This document shows, one piece after another, positions 20,394 to 39,351 of a stretch of 64,000 bases of DNA. Made by a program: the position numbers and the translations under genes. Location: the NCBI GenBank assembly GCA_964567265.1, contig CAZMLK010000002.1:138813-202812 (forward strand). The letters are read 5' to 3'. The DNA comes from an uncultured Candidatus Saccharibacteria bacterium (GTDB lineage Bacteria > Patescibacteriota > Minisyncoccia > Phycocordibacterales > UBA12088). Within the stretch, counting starts at the first letter, position 1; every line of letters begins with the position of its first letter. A model generated the notes under the pieces. It saw only the letters and a list, made by a program, of their open reading frames with translations. It was not told the DNA's origin and did not search any database.

Positions 20394-22145
20394 GTGTACG
20401 TTAATACAGAACAACTGAAGGAGTTTGTCCTCGATTCGGGCCTGGTGTCCCGGAAAGACTTTGAGGCTGCGGAAAAGGCGGCTGAAGAGAAGGGGGTGAC
20501 GGTCGAGCAGGCGCTCATGAATGCGGGCAAGGCGAGCGAGGACGACATCCGCCGTGTCCAAGCCTACGTGCTCGGGATCCCGTTCATCAACCTCAAGAAG
20601 CAGAAGATCGATTTCGATATCCTCTCCCTGATCCCCGAGCCGATCGCCCGGAAGCACAACATCGTCGCCTTCAAGAAGGCGGAAGGGGCGCTCGAGGTCG
20701 CGATGCTCGACATCGACAACCTCCAGGCGATCGAGTTCGTGAAGAAGAAGGTGGGTCTCAAGATCTTGCCACGCCTCACCGACGCGGATTCCATCAAGGA
20801 ACTCCTCCTGCAGTACCAGAAGACACTCAAGGACGAATTCGGCGACCTCATCAAGAAAGAATCTGCAACACTCGACGTGCTGCCGGAAGGGGAGGACGCG
20901 TCCGTCTCCGAGAAGGACCTCAAGAAGATCGCGGAGGACCTGCCGGTGGTGCGCATCGTGAATTCGCTCCTCAAGCATGCGATCATCCAGGACGCATCCG
21001 ACATCCACATCGAGCCCATGGAGAACGAGGTGCTGGTGCGGTACCGCATCGACGGCCTCCTCCATGACGCGATGACGCTTCCGAAGAACGCAGGCGCGTC
21101 GATCACCGCGCGCATCAAGGTGCTTTCGAACCTGAAATTGGATGAGAAGCGCCTCCCGCAGGACGGCCGCTTCAAGATGCGCATCGACAACGACAAGGTG
21201 TCATTCCGCGTCTCGATCCTCCCGACGTATTTCGGCGAGAAGACCGTGATGCGCCTCCTTCGCGAGTCGGGCGGCGGCTTCACACTCGAAAGTCTCGGCT
21301 TCCACGGCGAAGGACTGGAACGCATCCATGCAGCGACCAAGCTCGCCACCGGCATGATCCTCACGACCGGACCGACCGGAAGCGGCAAGACGACGACGCT
21401 CTATACCGTGCTTGATATCTTGAATACGCCGGATGTGAACATTTCTACTATCGAGGACCCGATCGAGTACCAGATGGCGCGTGTCAACCAGACGCAGGTC
21501 AAGCCGGAGATCGGATTCACGTTCACGAACGGCCTCCGCTCGCTGGTGCGCCAGGACCCGGACATCATCATGGTGGGAGAAATTCGCGACGGAGAGACGG
21601 CGTCGCTCGCCATCAATGCGTCTTTGACCGGCCACTTGGTGCTTTCGACGCTCCACACCAACAGCGCTACGGGAACCATGCCGCGCCTCATCGACATGGG
21701 CTGCGAGCCGTTCCTGATCGTTTCCACCTTGAATGTGGTCATTGGCCAGCGCCTCGTGCGCAAGCTGACCGGGGGGAAGGAGGAATACAATCTCTCGTCC
21801 GCGGAAATCAAATCATTGTCCGAGCATGCCGATCTCGACCTAGTCTTGAAGACATTGAAGGATGAGAGCATCGTCCCCAAGAACGCCACCTTCGACAAGA
21901 TCCCGTTCTACAGGCCGGTCGCCTCTCCCGAAGCAGGGGATGGCTACAAGGGTCGTATCGGCATCCACGAGGTGTTCAAGATGACGCCGACCATCCGCGA
22001 GATGGTGATGCAGGGAAAGACCGCGGCTGATATCGAGGTGCAGGCGAAGAAAGAAGGTATGCTCACGATGCTCGAGGACGGCATCTTCAAGGCTGTCGAG
22101 GGCGTGACGACGATCGAGGAGGTCTTGCGCGTCGTCAGCGAATAA
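20394..22145 (+). CDS. pilB: type IV pilus assembly ATPase PilB (GspE family)
   Basis: GSPII_E N-domain, Walker A GPTGSGKTTTLYTVL, Asp box, His box, tetracysteine-less variant. Confidence 0.9.
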   Translation: MYVNTEQLKEFVLDSGLVSRKDFEAAEKAAEEKGVTVEQALMNAGKASEDDIRRVQAYVLGIPFINLKKQKIDFDILSLIPEPIARKHNIVAFKKAEGALEVAMLDIDNLQAIEFVKKKVGLKILPRLTDADSIKELLLQYQKTLKDEFGDLIKKESATLDVLPEGEDASVSEKDLKKIAEDLPVVRIVNSLLKHAIIQDASDIHIEPMENEVLVRYRIDGLLHDAMTLPKNAGASITARIKVLSNLKLDEKRLPQDGRFKMRIDNDKVSFRVSILPTYFGEKTVMRLLRESGGGFTLESLGFHGEGLERIHAATKLATGMILTTGPTGSGKTTTLYTVLDILNTPDVNISTIEDPIEYQMARVNQTQVKPEIGFTFTNGLRSLVRQDPDIIMVGEIRDGETASLAINASLTGHLVLSTLHTNSATGTMPRLIDMGCEPFLIVSTLNVVIGQRLVRKLTGGKEEYNLSSAEIKSLSEHADLDLVLKTLKDESIVPKNATFDKIPFYRPVASPEAGDGYKGRIGIHEVFKMTPTIREMVMQGKTAADIEVQAKKEGMLTMLEDGIFKAVEGVTTIEEVLRVVSE

Positions 22146-22346
22146 CTCACCATACTAAAAAGATTCGCCGCGGGCCCCTTTGGGGCCCGCGGCGTTTCGC
22201 TACGATACAGGTTCTTCCATATCGAACTCTATCTGGCGCACGGGGATACTAGTGCCCGGTATTCGCTCGCAAGCAGCGAAGAAGTCGCGATTATCCGCAT
22301 TTCTCGCGTAGCGAGAAATGCGGATTGCTCTTACAATTGAAATGCA

Positions 22347-23567
22347 ATGGCGATCTTTACGTACAAGGCGACGAACAAGGAAGGGGAAGAGTATGAAGGG
22401 ACCGCGACCGTCGCCGACCGATTCGAGCTCTACTCGCATATCCAGAAGGAAGGCGGCACGATCATTTCCTATGCCGAGGGTAGTGCGGGCGGCGGTTTCA
22501 CGCTCGATGCGCTCATTAGCAAGATTTTCGGCCGCGTGAAGGAAACGGACAAGATCGTTCTTACAAGGAATCTCTCCGCGATGCTTACGGCAGGACTCTC
22601 GCTCACGCGCGCGATGGCCGTGATGAACCGCCAGACCAAGAACAAGAAGCTCAAAACCATCCTTGGGATGGTCGAGGGCTCGATCGAGAAGGGCGGCACC
22701 TTCCATGAGGCGCTGATCCCGTACCCGAACGTATTCAGTCCGCTCATGGTCGCCATGGTGAAGGCGGGCGAGGAAGGCGGCCGCCTCGCGGAATCGCTCT
22801 CGACGATCTCGAACCAGCTCGACCGCTCGTACAACCTCAAGAAGAAGATCCGCGGCGCGCTCATCTATCCCTCGATCGTCATCTTCGCGCTCGTGGTCGT
22901 CGGCATCCTGATGCTCATCTTCATCGTGCCGACCTTGACGAAGACCTTCACCGAGCTCCATGTTGAGCTCCCGGCCAGCACGAAGTTCGTCATCGCGTCG
23001 AGCAATTTCCTCACGCACCATACAGCCACCGCCGTCGCGATCGCCCTCCTCATCGCGGGCGGGGTCTGGATGGCGCTGCGGACCAAGAACGGCCGGCGCA
23101 CGTTCGAGTGGCTCCTTCTCCGCATCCCGATCATCGGCACGCTGGTCCGCGAGACGAATGCCGCCCGCACTGCGCGCACGCTCTCCTCGCTGCTTTCGTC
23201 GGGCGTCGAGATCGTCCGCTCGCTCGAGATCACCGTCGAGGTGGTGCAGAACTCGTACTACAAGGAAGTGATCGTCGAGGCGGGGGAGCGCATCCAGAAA
23301 GGACTCCCGCTCTTCGAGGTGTTCAACAAGTACGAGTCGTTGTACCCGCCCTTGGTCGCGGAACTGATCGCGGTCGGCGAGGAGACTGGAAAGCTCCCGG
23401 ACATGCTGCTCCAGATCGCGGATTTCTACGAGCGCGAAGTCGAGCAGAAGACGAAGGATATGTCGACCATCATCGAGCCGTTCCTCATGATCATCGTGGG
23501 CTCGGTCGTCGGCTTCTTCGCGGTCTCGATGATCACGCCGATCTACTCCATCACGGAGAATATTTAA
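22347..23567 (+). CDS. pilC: type IV pilus inner-membrane platform protein PilC (GspF family)
   Basis: Two T2SSF repeats, three TM segments. Confidence 0.9.
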   Translation: MAIFTYKATNKEGEEYEGTATVADRFELYSHIQKEGGTIISYAEGSAGGGFTLDALISKIFGRVKETDKIVLTRNLSAMLTAGLSLTRAMAVMNRQTKNKKLKTILGMVEGSIEKGGTFHEALIPYPNVFSPLMVAMVKAGEEGGRLAESLSTISNQLDRSYNLKKKIRGALIYPSIVIFALVVVGILMLIFIVPTLTKTFTELHVELPASTKFVIASSNFLTHHTATAVAIALLIAGGVWMALRTKNGRRTFEWLLLRIPIIGTLVRETNAARTARTLSSLLSSGVEIVRSLEITVEVVQNSYYKEVIVEAGERIQKGLPLFEVFNKYESLYPPLVAELIAVGEETGKLPDMLLQIADFYEREVEQKTKDMSTIIEPFLMIIVGSVVGFFAVSMITPIYSITENI

Positions 23568-23596
23568 TGCAGGCGTAATCCTGGCATTCTGCCGCA

Positions 23597-25357
23597 ATGA
23601 CTTTTCGCACCACACATTCGGCCGCGCGCGGCTTCTCACTCATCGATACCATCATCGGCATCGCGCTCATGACCATCGTCTTCTTCGCGCTCTTCGGCGC
23701 GTTCCGCTTCAGCTTGATCCTACTCGGCATCGCGAAGGCAAAGATCAGCGCGATCGCGCTCGCGAACGAGCAGATGGAATACATCCGCTCCATCGATTAC
23801 GACTCGGTCGGTACCGTGTCCGGCATCCCGGCAGGCGCGATCCCTCAGATAGAGAATTTCACCTACAACAATATCGCCTACACGCGGCGCGTGCTGGTGC
23901 AGTACGAGGATGCGCCGCAGGACGGGCTCGGCGCCGCCGACTCGAACAGTCTCACCGCCGACTACAAGCGCATCAAGGTCACGGTCTCGTGGACGGCGCG
24001 CGGCCGCGCGTTCGAGTACTCGCTCATCTCGACCATGGTGCCGCGCGGCGTCGAGAGCGTCGCGGGCGGCGGTACGCTCCGCATTTATGCGCTCTCAGCG
24101 CTCGGCGCGCCGCTCGATGATGCGACCGTACGAATCCAGAACCCGTCAACAACGCCCGCGATCGACGTCACGGTGAATACGAACAGCGCCGGCAAGGTCG
24201 AATTTCCGGGCGGCACGCCGGCCGCGAGCGGCTACCAGATCACCGTCTCGAAGAGCGGATACAGCACGGCGAAGACGTATTCGGTCACGGCCGCGAACCC
24301 GAGCCCAAGCCCTGGCCATCTCACGGTGGTCGCCGGCGGCACCACGAGCTCGACCTTCTCGATCGATCAGACGGCGACGAATACCATCCGCACCTTCATC
24401 CCGCTCCAGGCAGGCAGCTTCTCGGATTCGTTCCCGAACAGCGCGCAGACATCGCTCCTCGCCTCGACGACGGTTGCGGGAGGCGAGGTGGATCTCGTGA
24501 TTGATCCAGATACCAGCGATTATGCGCCGCAGGGGGAGGTGCGCTCGACGACTGTGAATCCGTCATACCTGTACTCGTGGGAATCGTTCTCCTGGACCGA
24601 CGACCGGCCAGCGGGCACGGATATCCGTTATCGCGTGTACTACGATACCGGTTCTGGATACGCGCTCGTGCCGGATAGCGCCCTGCCGGGAAATGCGCTC
24701 GGCGCGACGACTTCACCGATTGTGCTCACGACGCTTGCAACGACCACCTATCCGCGCCTCCGGCTCTCGGCAACACTTGCGGCCTCTGTGGGATCAACTA
24801 CGCCGAGCGTCCATGACTGGGATCTCTCATACAAAGGCGGCCCGACGCCGCTTCCGAATATCGCATTCACGCTCCAGGGTGCGAAGACTATCGGCACCAA
24901 TGGCGTCGGCACGCCTATATATAAGTACTCGCAGAGCCTGAATACGGGCGCGAGCTCCGTGGTTGCGGTTCCCGGCCTCGAGTGGGACAACTACACCATC
25001 ACGCTTTCAGGCGGCACCTATGACATCGCGGAATCCTGCAAGCCGCAGCCGGTCGGCGTGACGCCCGGGAGCATGATCACGACTGATCTCACACTTGCGG
25101 CGCATACCACGAACTCGCTCCTGGTCGCGGTCCGTGACAATGCCGGCGCACTCGCTTCTGGCGCGACGGTGCGCCTCTATGGCGGCGCGACCGACATCAC
25201 GAAGACAAGTTCCGAATGCGGGCAGGCCTTCTTCAGCAGCCTCTCTTCAAGCCTTCCGTACACGCTCGAGGTGTCGAAGTCTGGCTTCCAGACGACCACC
25301 ATCACGCCGGTCAATGTGGGCGGGAACCAGAGTATGAGCGCGACCATCAATCCGTAA
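23597..25357 (+). CDS. large prepilin-like (pseudopilin/minor pilin) protein
   Basis: Leader MTFRTTHSAARG then FSLIDTIIGIALMTIVFFALF (class III signal-like, D at +5), 586 aa Thr/Ser-rich beta-type body. Confidence 0.55.
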   Translation: MTFRTTHSAARGFSLIDTIIGIALMTIVFFALFGAFRFSLILLGIAKAKISAIALANEQMEYIRSIDYDSVGTVSGIPAGAIPQIENFTYNNIAYTRRVLVQYEDAPQDGLGAADSNSLTADYKRIKVTVSWTARGRAFEYSLISTMVPRGVESVAGGGTLRIYALSALGAPLDDATVRIQNPSTTPAIDVTVNTNSAGKVEFPGGTPAASGYQITVSKSGYSTAKTYSVTAANPSPSPGHLTVVAGGTTSSTFSIDQTATNTIRTFIPLQAGSFSDSFPNSAQTSLLASTTVAGGEVDLVIDPDTSDYAPQGEVRSTTVNPSYLYSWESFSWTDDRPAGTDIRYRVYYDTGSGYALVPDSALPGNALGATTSPIVLTTLATTTYPRLRLSATLAASVGSTTPSVHDWDLSYKGGPTPLPNIAFTLQGAKTIGTNGVGTPIYKYSQSLNTGASSVVAVPGLEWDNYTITLSGGTYDIAESCKPQPVGVTPGSMITTDLTLAAHTTNSLLVAVRDNAGALASGATVRLYGGATDITKTSSECGQAFFSSLSSSLPYTLEVSKSGFQTTTITPVNVGGNQSMSATINP

Positions 25358-25364
25358 GAGCGAT

Positions 25365-25988
25365 ATGAACCCTTTTTTCAAACATGAGGATACCGGCGGG
25401 GTGCGCGGCATGACGCTCATCGAGATGCTCGTCGTGATCGCGGTCGGTACCGCCGCGTCTCTCGTCCTCAGCGCGAACATCATCTATCTCTACAAGATCA
25501 ACCAGATCAGCTACGAGCAGGGCTTCGCCCTCGAGAGCGCGCGCCGCGGCATCGAGCTTTTGGTGCGCGATATCCGCGAGGCGACCTATTCCGACGACGG
25601 CTCGTTCCCGATCGTCGCCATGAGCCCGTACTCCTTGATCGTCTACAGCGACACCGACCGCGATTCGAGCGTCGAGCGCATACGCTATTTCATTTCAGGA
25701 ACCAACCTGAAGCGCGGTATTGTAGATGCGACGGGCACGCCGCTCACGTATCCGACTGCAAATGAGAAGGTGACGCTCGTTTCCGACTACGTGCGCAATT
25801 CCGAGCAGAGCATTCCTTCGTTCACGTACTACAACGCGGCAGGGGCGGAGATCACCGATTTCACCGATGTCTCCGACGTGACCTTCGTGAAAGTGAATCT
25901 CATCGTCAACATCAGCCCGACGCACCTGCCTGACGAATTCCTACTCCGCTCGAGCGCGGCGGTGAGAAACCTTCGCCCAAACCCTTAA
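25365..25988 (+). CDS. type IV pilin-like protein (PilW/GspJ-like pseudopilin)
   Basis: Canonical prepilin signal MNPFFKHEDTGGVRG|MTLIEMLVVIAVGTAA. Confidence 0.7.
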   Translation: MNPFFKHEDTGGVRGMTLIEMLVVIAVGTAASLVLSANIIYLYKINQISYEQGFALESARRGIELLVRDIREATYSDDGSFPIVAMSPYSLIVYSDTDRDSSVERIRYFISGTNLKRGIVDATGTPLTYPTANEKVTLVSDYVRNSEQSIPSFTYYNAAGAEITDFTDVSDVTFVKVNLIVNISPTHLPDEFLLRSSAAVRNLRPNP

Positions 25989-25993
25989 CAGGT

Positions 25994-27421
25994 ATGCACT
26001 TCTTCCCAAAAGCAGGACGCGAGAAGGGGAGTCTCATCCTCCTCACCTTGGTATTCGCGGGCATCTTCACCATGATCGTCGCGTCCTTGGCATCATTCCT
26101 CATCGTCCAGCAGAAGGTGGAGCGCGGGAAGGAAGCGCGCGAGCAGGCGATCCAGATCGCAGAAGGCGGGCTCGACTATTACAAATGGTTCCTCGCGCAT
26201 TACCCGAACGACCTCAAGGACGGCACAGGCGTCGCAGGACCGTATGTTCACGACTATACCGATCCGGAGGGCGGCTCGATCGGCAAGTTCTCGCTCTCGG
26301 TGTCAGGAAATTCTCAGTGCGGGTCGGTCGCGTCTATCGACATCACTTCGACCGGCTGGACCAATGACCGGGCCGAGCTGAAGCGTACGGTCTACGGACG
26401 CTATGCGCGGCCATCAGTCGCGGAATTCTCACATATATTGAACAGCAGTGTCTGGGCCGGAAGCGACCGTGAGATCTACGGGCCCTACCACTCGAACGGC
26501 GGCATCCGCATGGATGGCACCAACTATTCGAAGGTCACGAGCGCCGTCTCGACCTGGTCGTGCACCGCGAGCTTCGGCTGCTCGCCGACGGCGACCAAGA
26601 ACGGCGTATTCGGGAGCGGGCCGAACGCGAGCCTTTGGCAGTTCCCGGTCGCGCCGGTCGATTTCAACGGGCTCACGGTGGACCTGGTCGCGATGAAGAA
26701 TCTCGCGCAGACCCAGGGCGGCGTCTATTATCCGCCGGCAGGAAAGGGATATCACATCATCTTCAACGCGAATGGCACCATGACGGTGTACCGCGTGAAT
26801 AACACTTCCACGGTCTGGAGCTATTCCACTGAGGATGGGTGGGTACAAGACCCGCAGATCATCACGAACCAGACAAATCTCGGGACCATTGCCGTTCCGG
26901 CGAACTGCAAGGTCATCTTCGTCGAGGACAATCTGTGGCTTGAAGGGATCGTTTCTGGGAAAGTTGCGATCGCTGCCGCGAACGTGATCAACGCGACCAT
27001 CTCGCCGCGCATCCTCCTTTCGGGAAATATCACGTACGTGACCGGCGGCACGACGGATGGCCTTACCGCGATCGCCGAGGATTCCGTGTTGATCCCGCTC
27101 CAATCGCCGACGAACATGGAGCTCCACGGCGTATTCATTGCCCAGAATGGACGGTTCGCGCGCGACCACTATGTGACCTCGGGTACCAACCAAGTGCCGA
27201 GCGCCTACGATTCCTACGTGCAGCAGAATGACCTCATCATGTACGGCACCATCGTCTCGAATGGCCGCGTCGGGACCCAGTGGACCTGCGGCGGCACCTT
27301 CTGCTCCGGCTATGCGAACCGTGAGAATTACTACGACCGCAATCTCGCGACCTCGCCGCCGCCCCTTACCCCGCACACGAGCGAGGACTACCGGTTTATC
27401 GAGTGGCGGGAGAATGACTAA
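25994..27421 (+). CDS. PilX-like minor pilin/pilus tip-associated protein
   Basis: N-terminal GSLILLTLVFAGIFTMIVASLASFLIV hydrophobic helix as in PilX_N, large Thr/Gly/Asn-rich body. Confidence 0.5.
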   Translation: MHFFPKAGREKGSLILLTLVFAGIFTMIVASLASFLIVQQKVERGKEAREQAIQIAEGGLDYYKWFLAHYPNDLKDGTGVAGPYVHDYTDPEGGSIGKFSLSVSGNSQCGSVASIDITSTGWTNDRAELKRTVYGRYARPSVAEFSHILNSSVWAGSDREIYGPYHSNGGIRMDGTNYSKVTSAVSTWSCTASFGCSPTATKNGVFGSGPNASLWQFPVAPVDFNGLTVDLVAMKNLAQTQGGVYYPPAGKGYHIIFNANGTMTVYRVNNTSTVWSYSTEDGWVQDPQIITNQTNLGTIAVPANCKVIFVEDNLWLEGIVSGKVAIAAANVINATISPRILLSGNITYVTGGTTDGLTAIAEDSVLIPLQSPTNMELHGVFIAQNGRFARDHYVTSGTNQVPSAYDSYVQQNDLIMYGTIVSNGRVGTQWTCGGTFCSGYANRENYYDRNLATSPPPLTPHTSEDYRFIEWREND

Positions 27422-32701: not shown

Positions 32702-34399
32702 ATGAGTTACACCGTCCGCGAGGCAGTTCCTGAAAGCGTGAGTACCGAACTCTCCGCGTACGACCCCTTGCTGCAATCCCTCCTCTACGGACGCGGTATC
32801 GAGACGGCAACTGATGCCGCTTTCTTCCTCAATCCCGACTACGAGCTCCATACCCATGATCCGTACCTCTTCCTCGACATGGAGAAAGCGGTTCAGCGTA
32901 TCGTGACTGCAATTAAAAAAGACGAGCGTATCGTCATTTGGAGCGACTATGACACCGACGGCATCCCGGGCGCGGTCATCCTCCATGACTTCTTCAAGAA
33001 GATCGGCTATGACAATTTCGAGAATTACATCCCGCACCGGACGCTCGAAGGCTTCGGGCTCAATATCGCGGGCATCGAGGAACTCAAAGAGCGCGGCGCG
33101 AACGTAATCATCTCGATCGACTGCGGCATCACCGATGTCGCTCCGGTCGCCCGCGCCCGCGTGCTCGGCATCGACGTCATCATCACCGACCACCACCTTC
33201 CGCATGGCGTGATCCCGGATGCCTTCGCGATCGTGAACCCGAAGCAGGAAGCGTGCGCGTATCCGGAGAAGATGCTCTGCGGTGCGGGCGTCGTCTACAA
33301 GCTGGTGCAAGGGCTCGTGAAGAGCGGCGCATTTGATGTGCCCGTCGGCTGGGAAAAATGGCTTCTCGATATGGCTGGCCTCGCGACGCTCTCCGACATG
33401 GTGCCGCTCCGGGGCGAGAACCGCGTCTTCGCACGCTACGGCATGCAGGTGCTTCGGAAGTCACGTCGGCCAGGACTCCAGACCTTGCTTCGGAAACTCA
33501 AGATCGACCAGCGGACCCTCTCAGAAGACGACATCGGATTCATGATCGCGCCGCGCATCAATGCGGCGTCGCGCATGGGCGTGCCGCAGGATGCGTTCCG
33601 CCTGCTCGCGACGAGCGATACAGGCGAAGCAAGTGTCCTCGCCGCGCACCTCGACCAGATCAACAACGAGCGGAAAGGCCATGTTGCTGCGATGGTGAAG
33701 GAAGCGAAGCATCGACTTGAGGAACTCGGCGAGCCGCGTGCGGTCATTGTGCTCGGGAGCATCGATTGGAAGCCTTCCTTGCTTGGGTTGGTCGCGAACA
33801 CGCTCGTCGAAGCCTACGGCCGGCCGGTGTTCCTTTGGGGCCGCGAGACGGGTACCGTCATCAAGGGCTCATGCCGCTCAGATGGTTCGGTGAACTTGGT
33901 CACGCTCATGGACGGCGCACGCGAGATATTCATCGACGCGGGCGGCCATGCGTTCTCCGGCGGATTCTCGATCACCTCGGAAATGCTGCATCTTCTTGAA
34001 GATCGGCTCGTCGAGGCATATCCGAAAGCCCGCGACGCAGACGGCGGGCTCCAGGTACTCCGCGCGGATGCGGAGGTGACGCTCGGCATCGTGAACGAGA
34101 AGACCTGCAAGGTCTTGGATCAGCTTGCGCCGTTTGGGGAAGGGAATCCGAAGCCGATCTTTCTGTTCAAGGGTTCGCGCATTGCGTCCATGCGACAGTT
34201 CGGGAAGGAGGCGAATCATTTGGAATTGATGCTTGAGGACGGCGGCCCCGCGAAAAAGGCGATCGCCTTTTTCGCGGGGCCCGCGAGCTTCGCGAAGCCC
34301 GCCGAAAAAGGAACGGTTGCCGACATCCTCGGCACCATTGAGCGCTCCAGTTTCGGCGGCAAGACCGAGGTCCGGCTCCGACTTCTTGGCATCTTTTGA
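32702..34399 (+). CDS. recJ: single-stranded-DNA-specific exonuclease RecJ
   Basis: DHH motifs (IWSDYDTDGIPG, ITDHHLPHG), DHHA1 domain, C-terminal OB fold; start trimmed to MSYTVREAV. Confidence 0.85.
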   Translation: MSYTVREAVPESVSTELSAYDPLLQSLLYGRGIETATDAAFFLNPDYELHTHDPYLFLDMEKAVQRIVTAIKKDERIVIWSDYDTDGIPGAVILHDFFKKIGYDNFENYIPHRTLEGFGLNIAGIEELKERGANVIISIDCGITDVAPVARARVLGIDVIITDHHLPHGVIPDAFAIVNPKQEACAYPEKMLCGAGVVYKLVQGLVKSGAFDVPVGWEKWLLDMAGLATLSDMVPLRGENRVFARYGMQVLRKSRRPGLQTLLRKLKIDQRTLSEDDIGFMIAPRINAASRMGVPQDAFRLLATSDTGEASVLAAHLDQINNERKGHVAAMVKEAKHRLEELGEPRAVIVLGSIDWKPSLLGLVANTLVEAYGRPVFLWGRETGTVIKGSCRSDGSVNLVTLMDGAREIFIDAGGHAFSGGFSITSEMLHLLEDRLVEAYPKARDADGGLQVLRADAEVTLGIVNEKTCKVLDQLAPFGEGNPKPIFLFKGSRIASMRQFGKEANHLELMLEDGGPAKKAIAFFAGPASFAKPAEKGTVADILGTIERSSFGGKTEVRLRLLGIF

Positions 34400-34969: not shown

Positions 34970-35404
34970 ATGGAATCACCAAAACAGACAATCACGGTCT
35001 ACACTGACGGCGGCGCGAGAGGAAATCCGGGTCCCTCCGGCATCGGCGTCTTCATCGTCGGTGCAGACGGGAAGCCGCTCAAGGCCGTTTCAAAATATCT
35101 CGGCAAGCAGACCAACAACTTCGCTGAATACGAGGGCGTTGCGCTCGGACTCGAGACCTTGAAGAAAATGTTCGGTACAAAAACGAAGTCGATCCACGTT
35201 TCCGTGAAGCTCGACAGCGAGCTCATAAAGAAGCAGCTTACGAACGAATACCAAATCAAAGAAGAGACGCTCTGGCCGCAGTACATCAAGGTGCACAACC
35301 TCATCGTCTCCTCGTTCCCGCACATCTCATTCACCCATATCCCGCGCGCGGAGAACGCGAAAGCAGATGCGCTCGCGAACGAAGCGATGGACAGGGCTGC
35401 GTAG
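34970..35404 (+). CDS. rnhA: ribonuclease HI
   Basis: TVYTDGGARGNPGPSGIGV..NNFAEYEGVALGLE..ENAKADALANEAMD (DEDD catalytic residues); start trimmed to MESPKQ. Confidence 0.8.
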   Translation: MESPKQTITVYTDGGARGNPGPSGIGVFIVGADGKPLKAVSKYLGKQTNNFAEYEGVALGLETLKKMFGTKTKSIHVSVKLDSELIKKQLTNEYQIKEETLWPQYIKVHNLIVSSFPHISFTHIPRAENAKADALANEAMDRAA

Positions 35405-35419
35405 GAAAGCAACGCAGGA

Positions 35420-36925
35420 ATGCACACGCCGCCGGGCATACTTGCCCGGCGGCTTTGTATAATGATTCCCATGTTTCTCTATCCACTCATCGGTGGATTC
35501 GCAACAGGCGTCCTCCTCCGGTCCTTCCTCGTGATCGGGCTTCCGGGAGTCGGTTTCGGTGCCGTGATCGCGGCTGCACTCCTCGCGCTCGGTTTCCGCC
35601 GGGGCGAGCGATCGCTCACCCTCGCGGCGATTGTCTGTTTCGGTATCGTGCTCGGCATCTGCCGCTACACGCTTGCAGAGGATGCGCTCCCGTACGCGCT
35701 CGTCGATTCTCTTGGCGAAGGGCGCATGGTCGGGGCGGGCGTCATTGTCGCCGACCCGGATCTCCGCGAAGGGAACACCAAGCTCACCATCGATCTCGAT
35801 ACCATGAACAGCGCGACGACGACGCTCCGCATCCTCGCAACCGTGGATCGTTTCCCTCGCTTTGCATACGGGGATCGTGTGCAGTTGAATGGCATCCTCA
35901 AAAAACCCACAGCATTTTCCGGCGACACGGAGCGCGTCTTCGATTATCCCGCATGGCTCAAGAAAGATGGCATTGTCGCCGTCATGTCATATCCGCGCAT
36001 CGAACGCATCGAGGACGGAGGAGGCAACATCATTTTTCGATACCTGTTCCGCATCAAGCACGCCTTCCTCTCGAATATCGAGGAGCGCATTCCGGAACCG
36101 GAATCGGGACTCCTCGCGGGGCTCTTGGTTGGCTCGAAGCAGTCCTTGGGGAAGGAGCTCCAGGATACGTTCCGCGTCGCGGGTGTCATCCATATCGTCG
36201 TCCTCTCAGGCTACAACGTGACCATTGTCGCGGAAGCCATCATGCGGGCGCTCGCATTCCTGCCGCGCATGCTCTCCTATGCCGCAGGAGGGGTAAGTAT
36301 CATCCTCTTCGCGATCATGGCGGGCGGCTCGGCGACGGTGGTCCGTGCGAGCATCATGGCGGTCCTTGTCCTCATCGCGCGTGCGACGGGACGCACCAAT
36401 GATCTCCTTCGCGCGCTCCTTGTGACCGGCTTCGTGATGCTGATCCACAACCCCTTCATCTTGGCGTTCGATCCCTCGTTCCAACTCTCGTTCCTCGCGA
36501 CCTTCGGCCTCATATTGATCGCCCCGAAGCTTGAGACGCGGGTCACGTGGATTCCGGCAAGATTCGGCATTCGCGAGATTGTCGTCGCGACGCTCTCGAC
36601 GCAGCTCATCGTCTTGCCGCTCCTCCTCTGGATGACCGGTATCTTCTCGGTCGTCGCGCTTCCGGCGAACCTCCTTATCCTCGGCGCGGTGCCGCCCGCG
36701 ATGCTGTTCGGCTTCCTCGCCGGAATGCTCGGGTTCGTGAGTACCTGGCTCGCGCTCCCGTTTGCGCTCATCGCGGATGCGATCCTCCGTTACCAGCTTT
36801 TCGTCGTCCACGTGCTTGCTGGGCTTCCGTTCGCGGCCTTCACGCTCCCTGCCTTTCCGTTCTCAGTATCGCTGGTTGCGTACGTGCTCTTGGCGCTCGT
36901 CTATGTGCGCGTGTCGAAAAAATAA
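35420..36925 (+). CDS. comEC: ComEC/Rec2 DNA-uptake channel protein (N-terminal OB/DUF4131 plus competence membrane domain; no MBL domain in this ORF)
   Basis: AGVIHIVVLSGYNVTIVAEAIM matches the competence-domain signature (HxxxxSGxN), many TM segments; start may be 35420 or 35462. Confidence 0.7.
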   Translation: MHTPPGILARRLCIMIPMFLYPLIGGFATGVLLRSFLVIGLPGVGFGAVIAAALLALGFRRGERSLTLAAIVCFGIVLGICRYTLAEDALPYALVDSLGEGRMVGAGVIVADPDLREGNTKLTIDLDTMNSATTTLRILATVDRFPRFAYGDRVQLNGILKKPTAFSGDTERVFDYPAWLKKDGIVAVMSYPRIERIEDGGGNIIFRYLFRIKHAFLSNIEERIPEPESGLLAGLLVGSKQSLGKELQDTFRVAGVIHIVVLSGYNVTIVAEAIMRALAFLPRMLSYAAGGVSIILFAIMAGGSATVVRASIMAVLVLIARATGRTNDLLRALLVTGFVMLIHNPFILAFDPSFQLSFLATFGLILIAPKLETRVTWIPARFGIREIVVATLSTQLIVLPLLLWMTGIFSVVALPANLLILGAVPPAMLFGFLAGMLGFVSTWLALPFALIADAILRYQLFVVHVLAGLPFAAFTLPAFPFSVSLVAYVLLALVYVRVSKK

Positions 36926-36963
36926 GAACGGCCGCGCGAAGCGCGGCCGTTCTTATTTTTTTT
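36917..36963. terminator. bidirectional terminator aaaaaataagaacggccgcgcgaagcgcggccgttcttatttttttt between comEC and sodA
   Basis: 17-bp stem flanked by A6/T8 runs. Confidence 0.65.
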
Positions 36964-36971
36964 AGAAAGTA

Positions 36972-37556
36972 TTACGCAATCTTCTCGAACCTTGCGGCGA
37001 TCGTCTCCATATTGAGCGCCGCGAGATACGCGTCGACATACTTCATCTTGTCGCCAGGAAGATAGTCGACCATATAGGCGTGCTCCCACACATCGAGGGC
37101 GACGACGACGGGAAGCGTGGCGAGCTGACCCTCGTCGTGATTGGTAACCCAGTTCATGTGGAGGCACTTCGCGATCGGATCGTAATTGAGGAGCGCCCAG
37201 CCGCTGCCGCGCGCGACGATCTTCTTGAATGACTCCTTCCAGGCATCCACCGATCCGTATTCGGCGATGAGGAGGTTCGAGAGCGGGCTTGCGGGTAGTA
37301 CTTTCGGGCCGCCTTCCAAATCCCCGAAATAGTATTCGTGGAGGCGCATGCCGTTGAACTCGAATCCGAGCCGGCGGCGGAGTTCCTGCATCAGGTGGCC
37401 GTTCTTCGCGGCATCCGCTCCGAGTTCCTTGAGTTCGTCATCGATCAGGTTCACGTGCTTCACGTAGCCCTGGTACAGCTTCACATGTTCCTCGATCTGC
37501 TTTGCGGAGACGCCGGGCACTTCGGGAAGTGTGAATATTTTGGCTTCGTATTTCAT
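36972..37556 (-). CDS. sodA: Fe/Mn superoxide dismutase
   Basis: DVWEHAYY-type motif (DVWEHAYMVDY), HVNL...H metal ligands. Confidence 0.9.
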   Translation of the reverse strand: MKYEAKIFTLPEVPGVSAKQIEEHVKLYQGYVKHVNLIDDELKELGADAAKNGHLMQELRRRLGFEFNGMRLHEYYFGDLEGGPKVLPASPLSNLLIAEYGSVDAWKESFKKIVARGSGWALLNYDPIAKCLHMNWVTNHDEGQLATLPVVVALDVWEHAYMVDYLPGDKMKYVDAYLAALNMETIAARFEKIA

Positions 37557-37598
37557 GGACGGGTTTGGTTAGCTGGTCTCGAAAAGTATACACCAAAG

Positions 37599-37628
37599 AA
37601 AAAAGCCAGGGTCCGGGTGGACCCTGGC
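37599..37628 (-). repeat. hairpin repeat copy 1 (gccagggtccgggtggaccctggc preceded by A6), reads as an intrinsic terminator on the minus strand
   Basis: 24/24 identity with 37814-37837 except one loop base; flanking similarity extends to ...gggaggc. Confidence 0.6.
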
Positions 37629-37745
37629 AAGTAAGATCAGGGAGGCTAAACGTCTGGGAGGAGATAAGCACGCGGCAATGCGTGTGCCCCAAGTCATGTG
37701 AATGACCAGGTGGGCTTGAAGCCCAGGAACCGCAAGTCCACTGAC
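37600..37745 (-). ncRNA. candidate small RNA (about 140 nt) with its own promoter TTGACA-N17-TACAAA (37749-37777, minus strand) and terminator (copy-1 hairpin)
   Basis: No protein-like ORF; internal hairpins (GACAC...GUGUC; CACGC...GCGUG); bracketed by promoter and terminator; class unknown. Confidence 0.3.
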
Positions 37746-37807
37746 ACCTTTGTACCAGTGTCTTGGAATGCTGTCAATGCCGCGTGAGTGAGGGGTGCGG
37801 GGGAAAT

Positions 37808-37837
37808 GAAAAAGCCAGGGTCCGGAGGGACCCTGGC
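37808..37837 (-). repeat. hairpin repeat copy 2 (gccagggtccggagggaccctggc)
   Basis: See copy 1. Confidence 0.6.
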
Positions 37838-37981
37838 AGTCAGTCGAGGAACTGGGAGGCACGATTACCATAGCAGTCTTCATGATATTTTGTCAATTAA
37901 CCAGGCGTTTTTACAGGTAATCCACATGACAGGCCAAGCGATTCCTAGAGCGGAAACGGGGCCATGGTACCATTTCCAGAT

Positions 37982-38185
37982 ATGCGTACCGCCCTTTTCT
38001 TCATTACTATCCTTGCGGTCGTCGTCGGCGCCTTTCTCTATCTGAACCGGACGCCGTGCGAGGGGAAGTGCCCTGAATCAGCGGGCAAGGAATACTGCCG
38101 AAGCCTCGACAAACGCCGCAAGAATACAGAATTCAACCTCTCATATGGCGACCGTGTCCGCATGGTCATAAACGGCTGCTACTAG
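37982..38185 (+). CDS. possible 67-aa small membrane protein with Cys-rich tail (MRTALFFITILAVVVGAFLYLNRTPCEGKCPESAGKEYC...)
   Basis: One clear TM helix, ends 6 nt before the ComEC-MBL gene. Confidence 0.3.
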   Translation: MRTALFFITILAVVVGAFLYLNRTPCEGKCPESAGKEYCRSLDKRRKNTEFNLSYGDRVRMVINGCY

Positions 38186-38191
38186 GCTTTC

Positions 38192-39049
38192 ATGACATTC
38201 TCTCCGCTCCGGATTCGGATCGGCACACTCGCGCTCCTCGCCGGCGTGACCATTTTCATCTGGTACCTCGCGCTCCAGGCGACGTCCTCTCAGCTCACGG
38301 TCGCATTCCTCGATATCGGACAAGGAGATGCGATTTATATCGAGGGGCCGAACGGGAATCAGATTCTCATCGACGGCGGTGCGGACACCAAGGTGCTTGC
38401 CCGCCTCGGGGAGGTGATGCCGCTCGGCGACCGCTCGATCGATGTCGTCATCGGGACGCATCCAGACAAGGATCATATCGGCGGACTGCCTGACGTCTTG
38501 AAACGCTACGATGTTTCCTATGTATTCGAGCCCGGCATGGCGAATGATACGGCCGCATGGGACGCGTTCCTTCAGGCGATCGCGGACGAACACGCCGGGC
38601 ACATCATCGCGCGCCGGGGAATGGAGATCGATCTCGGACAGGGTGTCATGCTTTCGATATTGTTCCCGGACAAGCAGATCGCCGGCAAGGAGACGAACGC
38701 GGCTTCGATCGTCGCGAAGCTCTCGTATGGCGCCGTCGGCGTGATGCTGACTGGCGATGCGCCGCAGTCAGTCGAAGATCATCTTGTTACCTTGGATGGC
38801 GGGAATCTGAAAAGCGACATCCTCAAGGCAGGGCACCATGGATCGAAAACCTCAAGCGCTCCGCAGTTTCTCGATGCGGTCCGCCCGGCGTACGGGATCA
38901 TTTCCGCAGGGAAGGGAAATTCCTATGGCCATCCGCACAAGGAGGTCGTGAGCGCGCTCACGGAACGGAATGTGCGCACTCTGAGCACCATCGACAGGGG
39001 GACCATCATCTTTACTTCGGATGGGACGGCCGTCGCCTTACAGGAGTAG
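38192..39049 (+). CDS. ComEC-type metallo-beta-lactamase domain protein (stand-alone C-terminal nuclease domain of ComEC/Rec2)
   Basis: Signal/TM then VAFLDIGQGDAIYIE...VVIGTHPDKDHIGG...KAGHHGSKTSS (HxHxDH and later His of the ComEC MBL fold). Confidence 0.75.
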   Translation: MTFSPLRIRIGTLALLAGVTIFIWYLALQATSSQLTVAFLDIGQGDAIYIEGPNGNQILIDGGADTKVLARLGEVMPLGDRSIDVVIGTHPDKDHIGGLPDVLKRYDVSYVFEPGMANDTAAWDAFLQAIADEHAGHIIARRGMEIDLGQGVMLSILFPDKQIAGKETNAASIVAKLSYGAVGVMLTGDAPQSVEDHLVTLDGGNLKSDILKAGHHGSKTSSAPQFLDAVRPAYGIISAGKGNSYGHPHKEVVSALTERNVRTLSTIDRGTIIFTSDGTAVALQE

Positions 39050-39108: not shown

Positions 39109-39351
39109 CTAGATAACCCCTGCGTCCTTGAGCGCCTTGAACGGGCCCTTCTTGGTGATGGTCCGGAGACCCTTCGTGGAGACGGTGATCGTCACAAACT
39201 TCTTGAGTTCAGGGACGTAGAAGCGCTTCTTCATAAGGTTGGAGTGGCGCGTGACCTTTCCAGTCGGGTTGAACTGGGTAGCGCGAACACGGTTGGAGTA
39301 GCGGCCTCCGACCTGGGTTCCTTTATTGGTGATTGCGCAGACACGTGCCAT
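39109..39351 (-). CDS. rpmB: 50S ribosomal protein L28
   Basis: MARVCAITNKGTQVGGRYSNRVRATQ...; start trimmed to MARVC (80 aa). Confidence 0.8.
   Translation of the reverse strand: MARVCAITNKGTQVGGRYSNRVRATQFNPTGKVTRHSNLMKKRFYVPELKKFVTITVSTKGLRTITKKGPFKALKDAGVI

Follow-up and report, generated by a model that had tools for sequence, protein, structure and literature searches.

The window studied here, the whole 64-kb stretch of contig CAZMLK010000002.1, contains two genes that together appear to encode ComEC, the universal gate for natural transformation. The upstream gene specifies the channel part of the protein and the downstream gene a metallo-beta-lactamase (MBL) nuclease domain carried on its own transmembrane helix; the two open reading frames (ORFs) lie 1.27 kb apart, with an antisense gene and a terminator between them. 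The initial annotation had described ComEC as a channel gene plus a separate membrane-anchored MBL gene at these positions, and matches to Pfam, to the NCBIfam model TIGR00361 and to the ComEC chain 30bt_A agree with that description. Read from 5' to 3', the locus is ordered RecJ, RNase H, channel ORF, inverted repeat, sodA (minus strand), two small RNA (sRNA)-like units, a small ORF and the nuclease ORF, followed by rpmB (L28; minus strand, 39109–39351), an M50 peptidase gene, rpsL and rpsG. The 64-kb window holds no further Competence ORF or ComEC-type MBL ORF. The features are as follows.

About 32702–34399, plus strand: RecJ gene.
34970–35404, plus strand: RNase H gene.
35420–36925 as the longest ORF (501 amino acids), likely 35462–36925 (487 amino acids), plus strand: candidate ComEC channel subunit (Pfam, TIGR00361, 30bt_A).
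36917–36961, both strands: bidirectional intrinsic terminator (inverted repeat, folding).
36972–37556, minus strand: sodA, Fe/Mn superoxide dismutase of 194 amino acids (Pfam Sod_Fe_C).
37598–37752, minus strand: sRNA-like unit 2 (terminator scan, folding, conservation).
37806–37896, minus strand: sRNA-like unit 1 (terminator scan, folding, conservation).
37982–38185 (67 amino acids) or 37964–38185 (73 amino acids), plus strand: small conserved ORF (substitution rates, relatives).
38192–39049, plus strand: candidate ComEC nuclease subunit of 285 amino acids (TIGR00361, 30bt_A, 9ic4).
38219–38278, plus strand: transmembrane anchor of the nuclease subunit (Kyte-Doolittle profile, model, alignment).
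38459–38476, plus strand: HxDxDH metal-binding motif of the nuclease (alignment of homologues).

The channel ORF is built of N-terminal transmembrane helices, a DUF4131/OB-fold module and a polytopic Competence channel. Pfam places DUF4131 (PF13567) at residues 39–196 with 58 bits (cut-off 31.6) and Competence (PF03772) at residues 235–498 with 158.3 bits (cut-off 23), while the NCBIfam models give 64.5 bits for TIGR00360, ComEC_N-term (cut-off 36.5), and 73.6 bits over model positions 82–369 for TIGR00361, ComEC_Rec2. In the predicted structure, residues 87–184 form a beta-rich segment, the OB-fold region, and the protein ends in a basic tail, VRVSKK, predicted to be cytoplasmic. The gene probably starts at the ATG at 35462, giving 487 amino acids as in a called homologue of the same length (P0121, 92% identical). 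Between the stop codon of RNase H and position 35462, inside the longest-ORF version of the channel gene, there is a strong GC hairpin at 35428–35453 (-27.4 kcal/mol, z-score -5.4) with UUUGUAUAAUG after it. This hairpin is probably the RNase H terminator, and it favours a start at 35462 (or 35471).

The 38192 ORF matches Lactamase_B in Pfam, and its best NCBIfam match is again ComEC_Rec2, this time over positions 413–662 of 663 (134.4 bits, E-value 3.7e-39). The initial annotation had pointed to a stand-alone beta-lactamase-fold hydrolase as the identity that would speak against ComEC. A B3-like beta-lactamase (blaAHM, 87 bits against a cut-off of 590) and the defence MBLs Avs1a (63.7 against 420) and 6A-MBL (34 against 220) were considered and rejected, as all fall below their cut-offs and below the score of the ComEC_Rec2 model. 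In a Foldseek search of the PDB, the best match was the ComEC beta-lactamase-like domain 9ic4 (template modelling score 0.85, root-mean-square deviation 2.8 Å, E-value 1.8e-18), followed by Pce; this comparison bears on the MBL domain alone, the set searched being one without full-length ComEC. ComEC thus held as the best assignment by sequence and fold. In an alignment of 21 nuclease homologues the metal site H90-P-D92-K-D94-H95 (HxDxDH) and residues D189, H215, H216, H247 and H249 are invariant, and the characterised ComEC nuclease domain carries the identical HxDxDH variant, H598-x-D600-x-D602-H603 (PMC12455585).

Ahead of its MBL nuclease domain, the protein has a basic N-terminus (MTFSPLRIRIG, running into the membrane segment) and a single transmembrane helix at residues ~10–29, IGTLALLAGVTIFIWYLAL, with R7 and R9 just before it and a Kyte-Doolittle maximum of 2.13 over 19 residues. 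The predicted topology is N-in, C-out, which would put the MBL domain outside the cytoplasmic membrane. The helix aligns with the one preceding the MBL domain in fused ComECs, and a Trp at its outer end is conserved in fused and split proteins; by this alignment the anchor is homologous to the last transmembrane helix of ComEC. A near relative of the nuclease in the representative library (P0363, 721 amino acids, 285 bits) begins like a lipoprotein and contains two stretches of MBL; it may be a ComEC-type nuclease that has been duplicated in tandem and is anchored through a lipid.

Taken together, the two ORFs are, as judged by alignment, complementary, colinear and non-overlapping pieces of one ComEC. 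Aligned to a full-length protein, as the initial annotation had proposed, both fall in order on the 801-residue chain 30bt_A: residues 148–494 of the channel ORF correspond to residues 143–486 (E-value 8e-28) and residues 8–279 of the nuclease ORF to residues 509–789 (E-value 1.7e-36); 9ic4 was matched as well. Taken as a single polypeptide, each ORF scores below the TIGR00361 equivalog cut-off of 190.05 bits. In an alignment of the halves that fused Chloroflexi ComECs bridge, a linker of 30–50 residues separates the last channel helix of the fused proteins from the transmembrane helix that precedes the MBL domain; split channel proteins end just past the last channel helix (...VYVRVSKK), and split nuclease proteins begin 6–10 residues before their transmembrane helix. 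The fission point, on this alignment, is the cytoplasmic linker between these two helices. Both new termini are predicted to be cytoplasmic because both are basic, and the MBL domain would therefore remain outside the membrane. Cryo-EM work describes the cytoplasmic linker of ComEC as flexible and the nuclease domain as held in its orientation only by a small, weak and conserved contact with a loop of the OB fold (PMC13539106). From this description, the cut would lie at the structurally most permissive place in the protein.

An AlphaFold2 model of the concatenated halves, computed from 114 alignment rows including fused homologues, reached a mean predicted local distance difference test (pLDDT) score of 92.7 and a predicted template modelling score of 0.70, with pLDDT values of 65–71 only at the junction and the nuclease transmembrane helix (helix 492–516 of the model).

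Whether relatives carry fused or split versions, a comparison suggested in the initial annotation, was addressed through homologue searches and gene order. The 120 best clusters at 90% identity for each half are all half-sized: nuclease clusters of ~266–357 amino acids with Lactamase_B only, and channel clusters of ~410–520 amino acids with DUF4131 and Competence only. Their named sources are Kaiser-, Campbell-, Yonath- and Taylorbacteria and Paceibacteria (Patescibacteria/Parcubacteria lineages), and in NCBI some nuclease halves already go by the name 'ComEC/Rec2 family competence protein', others by 'MBL fold metallo-hydrolase'. Searching 1.84 billion representatives at 50% identity with the nuclease returned 7061 proteins at E ≤ 1e-30. 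Among the best 150 of these, 137 measure 260–330 amino acids and four exceed 600, and the first form of three-domain size (~812 amino acids, MBL match at 531–804) ranks about 85th. A hydrophobic, transmembrane-like segment ahead of the first MBL motif is present in 129 of the 137 stand-alone representatives. A fused Chloroflexi ComEC used as query returned nearly exclusively three-domain proteins of ~800 amino acids, with a few shorter ones that are probably partial.

The nuclease alignment was also used to scan GTDB, one genome for each species, which added 80 loci, and a total of 88 (the window and L001–L087) were classified with profile hidden Markov models of both halves. Thirteen loci are fused, all in records labelled as Chloroflexi classes. 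The split loci comprise 13 with adjacent or overlapping genes, 23 with sodA between the halves on the opposite strand (the window included) and 18 with another insert; the remaining 21 have no channel gene in the available stretch, mostly on short contigs. All ~65 Patescibacteria loci sampled are split. Taxon names on many records of metagenome-assembled genomes are unreliable, and the labels 'Saccharibacteria' and 'Gammaproteobacteria' on several of them (binchicken series), apparently placeholders, carried no weight in the analysis.

The exact gene order of the window, from the channel gene through rpsG, is kept in L001, L002 and L003, the last being a 514-kb contig of GCA_964411375.1 whose proteins are 49–66% identical to those of the window. 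A wider block, RecJ-(small ORF)-RNase H-channel...nuclease-L28 (minus strand)-M50-rpsL-rpsG-fusA, is shared by the window, L003, L005 and others. Of 69 split loci, 39 have L28 on the minus strand within 3 kb past the nuclease gene, and ahead of the channel gene RecJ is found in 26 and RNase H in 24 of 51 loci. The position of RecJ, a single-stranded DNA exonuclease, beside a predicted uptake channel fits nucleotide salvage from imported DNA.

Spacing between the halves varies widely. The two genes share a 4-nt overlap (ATGA) in L005, five genes stand between the halves in a Campbellbacteria contig, the channel gene lies 7.9 kb upstream in a Kaiserbacteria contig, and L006 shows no linkage between the two. 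Junctions of adjacent pairs include ATGA, overlaps of 8–26 nt, an ATG right after the stop codon and spacers of 10–40 nt, in all three frame offsets. The junction has repeatedly taken up single genes, mostly on the opposite strand (the 23 sodA loci; L011, L012, L015, L016, L048, L054, L042). Among them are a recurrent opposite-strand ORF of ~196 amino acids in six loci, a DedA/VTT-domain membrane protein by Pfam (L011 tested), and an IS200-like transposase on the same strand in L042. This suggests that the junction is a recurrent insertion hot spot.

In a rough neighbour-joining distance tree of the MBL parts, the Chloroflexi sequences form one clade and all Patescibacteria sequences fall outside it. 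Loci with sodA between the halves are concentrated in one large subclade, and the adjacent-type L005 is sister to the group of the window. The split is either ancestral to Patescibacteria or very old among them; adjacent or overlapping genes are probably the older gene order, and the sodA insertion is itself old and common to many lineages. Two Dehalococcoidia-labelled loci, L057 (68–2462) and L067 (8418–10846), are split into overlapping ORFs, and their MBL parts nest in the clade of fused Chloroflexi proteins; each represents either a recent, independent fission or else a frameshift error or a pseudogene.

Both ComEC ORFs have intact frames, with no internal stops or truncations. Compared with L001 (89–92% identical), the ratio of nonsynonymous to synonymous substitution rates (dN/dS) is 0.11 for the channel gene and 0.08 for the nuclease gene, next to 0.04 for sodA and 0 for rpsL. 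These ratios indicate that both halves are under strong purifying selection. By these comparisons the split ComEC is neither decay nor the scar of a local rearrangement but the normal, conserved state in Patescibacteria.

The features between the halves are largely those reported in the initial annotation, namely a strong terminator, sodA on the opposite strand and a repeat region. The inverted repeat at 36917–36961, 0–40 nt beyond the end of the channel ORF, has 21-nt arms with 100% complementarity and a 3-nt loop, and folds with -35.4 kcal/mol on the plus and -34.2 kcal/mol on the minus strand (z-scores -7.6 and -8.6). Its strong fold and the U-runs on both strands mark it as a terminator in both directions, for the channel gene and for sodA, which converge on it. 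The sodA product carries Sod_Fe_C (68 bits) and the ligand motif DVWEHAY, and the NCBIfam Mn-SOD models match it below their cut-offs.

The 635-nt gap between sodA and the nuclease gene (37557–38191) holds both sRNA-like units and the small ORF. The repeat region consists of a 35-nt direct repeat with copies at 37595–37629 and 37804–37838, which are two minus-strand terminator hairpins, nearly identical in both units: GCCAGGGUCC-N4-GGACCCUGGC followed by a U-run. The hairpin occurs at just these two sites in the window. Unit 2 has a promoter-like TTGACA-17-TACAAA just upstream, CCUCCC motifs and its terminator hairpin at 37628–37605, and folds with -59.9 kcal/mol (z-score -3.45); promoter, CCUCCC motif and terminator are conserved in L001 and L002 and recognisable in L003. 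Unit 1 has a promoter-like site at 37896–37867 (TTGACA-18-TATGGT with TG), a short CCUCCC-containing RNA and a hairpin at 37837–37814, its terminator region being the second copy of the direct repeat; it folds with -25.8 kcal/mol (z-score -4.67) and is conserved in L001 and L002 and absent from L003. No Rfam family matches the intergenic region at the gathering threshold, and a permissive search of unit 2 returned suhB/mmgR alone, below threshold (28 bits against 41, E-value 1e-3) and without membership. Elsewhere in the window, CCUCCC-type motifs occur at chance level. The motif of the two units looks anti-Shine-Dalgarno-like, and the units may either act in trans as sRNAs or serve sodA as a leader/attenuator.

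The small ORF encodes an N-terminal transmembrane helix and a Cys-rich tail, with the motif YLNRTPCxGxC...YCxSL...YGxRVxM...GC. Its stop codon lies 6 nt ahead of the nuclease gene, with which it is probably co-transcribed. It has a dN/dS of 0.02 against L001, is called as a gene in L001–L003 and is 53% identical to a 64-residue ORF of L003. A jackhmmer search over all fetched loci recovered it from the window and L001–L003 alone, and Pfam gave no match. It may be an accessory protein or an inhibitor of the nuclease.

The previous analyses lead to the proposal of a functional two-subunit ComEC, in which a channel subunit and a membrane-anchored nuclease subunit act together, and on the sequence evidence we consider this reading likely. 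We infer a physical association of the two proteins, a nuclease activity and a role in DNA uptake. Mechanistically, the channel gene would provide an OB-fold and Competence-domain DNA channel, and the nuclease gene an MBL domain held at the membrane by its own N-terminal helix, outside the cytoplasmic membrane as in fused ComEC. Incoming double-stranded DNA, probably brought in by a type IV pilus encoded 13 kb upstream, would be bound by the OB fold at the outer mouth of the channel. The separately anchored nuclease would dock there and degrade the strand that is not translocated. The other strand would pass through the channel towards recombination, or towards breakdown to nucleotides, with RecJ and RNase H encoded just upstream. 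In the lineage of the window, sodA, the sRNA-like units and the small ORF would have been inserted between genes that were once adjacent or overlapping. With a strong bidirectional terminator and an antisense gene now coming between the two genes, each subunit would be made from a transcript of its own; that nuclease and channel are produced separately had been raised in the initial annotation and is supported. The pilus cluster (20394–27421) encodes a PilB-like ATPase (20394–22145), PilC (22347–23567) and a pilin-like protein (25365–25988). The pilin-like protein has an N-terminal methylation motif, and a CarboxypepD_reg-domain protein is also encoded in the cluster. These pilus genes are in keeping with the usual pathway of uptake, as is RecJ beside the channel gene.

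Several observations weigh against two subunits acting together, and most of them can be read in favour of an MBL protein that descends from the nuclease domain of ComEC but has left the ComEC complex. It would then be a surface nuclease in its own right, anchored in the membrane and serving, for instance, the scavenging of nucleotides in an organism unable to make them, with the channel acting alone or with another nuclease. In the window the two genes sit in separate transcription units. A trans arrangement would, besides, have to rely on co-localisation in the membrane. Linkage to the channel has been lost in several lineages: in some relatives the halves are 5–8 kb apart, and in L014, L018, L045 and L083 the ~10 kb ahead of the nuclease gene contain no channel gene (~6 kb for L006). 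Among Firmicutes, Bacillus and Lysinibacillus have stand-alone surface proteins in which a ComEC-type MBL is combined with SLH or Lamin-tail (LTD) domains, and Streptococcus pneumoniae employs a separate nuclease, EndA (PMC12455585). The concatenated model, moreover, forces a covalent link between the halves and is least certain (pLDDT 65–71) at the nuclease transmembrane helix and the junction. Southlakia epibionticum ML1, a cultivated, transformable Saccharibacterium, has no annotated ComEC-type MBL partner (PMC10633639), so that the channel may not strictly need one. Its channel-only ComEC, SEML1_0777 (1449 bp, PF03772 and PF13567), is the sole ComEC of the phylum tested by experiment and is required for natural transformation (PMC10633639), which indicates that a channel-only ComEC is functional in this phylum, although in a different class, a point that also counts in favour of the two-subunit reading. 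The sole 'MBL fold metallo-hydrolase' in the S. epibionticum table, SEML1_0132 (636 bp, PF13483), lies directly upstream of L28 on the opposite strand (PMC10633639). The nuclease gene of the window has the same position, which could reflect a diverged positional counterpart or mere chance. Opposed to a purely independent nuclease are the anchor itself, which corresponds to the last helix of ComEC with its Trp kept and recurs as a hydrophobic segment in nearly all stand-alone representatives, the adjacency or translationally coupled overlap with the channel gene in many lineages, and the conserved RecJ-RNaseH-channel...MBL-L28 synteny. We regard an independent role as rather improbable, and it is not exclusive: a surface nuclease and a subunit of a two-part ComEC can coexist in one protein.

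Seen in the window alone, a protein that is normally the product of one gene comes in two parts with foreign DNA in between. This could pass for a once-fused gene broken by the insertion of sodA, with one or both parts no longer functional, and the initial annotation had raised the options that one part is decaying or that ComEC was rearranged, and proposed looking for a frameshift or rearrangement scar. Neither option survived the comparison with relatives. Selection on both halves is comparable with that on sodA, the reading frames are uninterrupted, lengths are conserved and the catalytic motifs are invariant. The identical arrangement recurs in relatives down to 49–66% identity, and the split is ancient and clade-wide, conserved across many independently assembled genomes and contigs, with junctions and frames that vary among lineages; decay is very unlikely. 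There is scarcely any probability that the split stems from an error in assembly, sequencing or gene calling, or that recoding or trans-splicing restores a fused protein. Adjacent overlapping pairs such as that of L005 do resemble a frameshift error superficially, but junction types and frames differ across lineages and every nuclease gene starts at an ATG of its own, followed by a basic N-terminus and a transmembrane helix, which excludes a sequencing frameshift. In the window, moreover, the halves are 1.27 kb apart with an antisense gene and a terminator intervening, independent assemblies show the same arrangement, and neither half matches a Pfam intein domain.

Set against known systems, the two-subunit ComEC proposed here has the same modules in the same order as canonical ComEC/Rec2 (B. 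subtilis; Moorella/Neomoorella, 30bt and 9ic4; TIGR00361), that is OB fold/DUF4131, Competence, and transmembrane helix with MBL, and the same HxDxDH motif; it differs in that these modules reside on two polypeptides, encoded 1.27 kb apart and in separate transcripts. The channel ORF has exactly the 'DC-profile' (DUF4131 and Competence, without Lactamase_B) described by Pimentel & Zhang 2018 and seen in the ComEC family of the candidate phyla radiation (CPR) of Méheust et al. 2019, and so does SEML1_0777. Pimentel & Zhang 2018 treat DUF4131 plus Competence as a standard category and read domain differences as gains and losses (PMC6299819), and Méheust 2019 noted the absence of the ComEC-MBL fusion in CPR bacteria (PMC6744442). 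These studies take the missing domain as absent or lost, whereas the window retains it as a separate, membrane-anchored, conserved gene.

S. pneumoniae offers the closest functional parallel, with EndA acting in trans beside a ComEC whose own MBL domain is catalytically degenerate (PMC12455585). Both arrangements place a separate membrane-bound, strand-degrading nuclease next to the channel, a role that for the window we infer; the difference is that EndA is unrelated to the MBL fold, while the trans nuclease of the window would be ComEC's own domain together with its transmembrane helix. The Firmicutes surface MBLs (SLH-MBL of B. cereus, MBL-LTD of Lysinibacillus) share ~39% identity, the same MBL subfamily and an extracytoplasmic location, but are anchored by SLH domains or carry a Lamin-tail domain, lack the ComEC transmembrane helix and have no channel gene within 10 kb. 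The two loci sampled are L071 (9959–11149, Lysinibacillus; MBL and Lamin-tail domain) and L073 (9407–10816, Bacillus cereus; MBL and SLH domains), and their products probably act as nucleases at the cell surface that either descend from the ComEC nuclease or are related to it.

The missing ComEC-MBL fusion in CPR bacteria was already known, and a split that is ordinary for the phylum is partly anticipated by it. What appears new is that the nuclease is retained in Patescibacteria as a separate membrane-anchored gene, ancestrally adjacent to the channel gene and conserved across the radiation. In the reviews, structural papers and CPR literature consulted, whose coverage is not exhaustive, none of these three points was found described.

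More speculatively, ComEC of Patescibacteria, and possibly of other 'Lactamase_B-loss' lineages, might be a modular machine with a dissociable, separately regulated, membrane-anchored nuclease, a view we hold only tentatively and with more doubt than belief. If it is true, many reported domain 'losses' would be gene fissions, nucleotide-auxotrophic cells could, with the two parts uncoupled, adjust the nuclease or turn it to DNA scavenging without involving the channel, and the nested Chloroflexi splits L057 and L067 would show that fission recurs.

The field has yet to settle how the non-transforming strand is degraded where ComEC 'lacks' its nuclease domain (PMC12455585). In a very large bacterial radiation the nuclease domain is, on the present evidence, not missing but encoded in trans, with ComEC's own membrane helix, and published gain-and-loss reconstructions of ComEC domains need to be re-read. 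For annotation, Patescibacteria genes of this type labelled 'MBL fold metallo-hydrolase' are probable ComEC subunits. The natural split site in the flexible cytoplasmic linker could be used to reconstitute or dissect ComEC, for example with respect to a cis requirement between OB fold and nuclease. Finally, the arrangement bears on what DNA uptake may serve in Patescibacteria, genetics or nucleotide supply.

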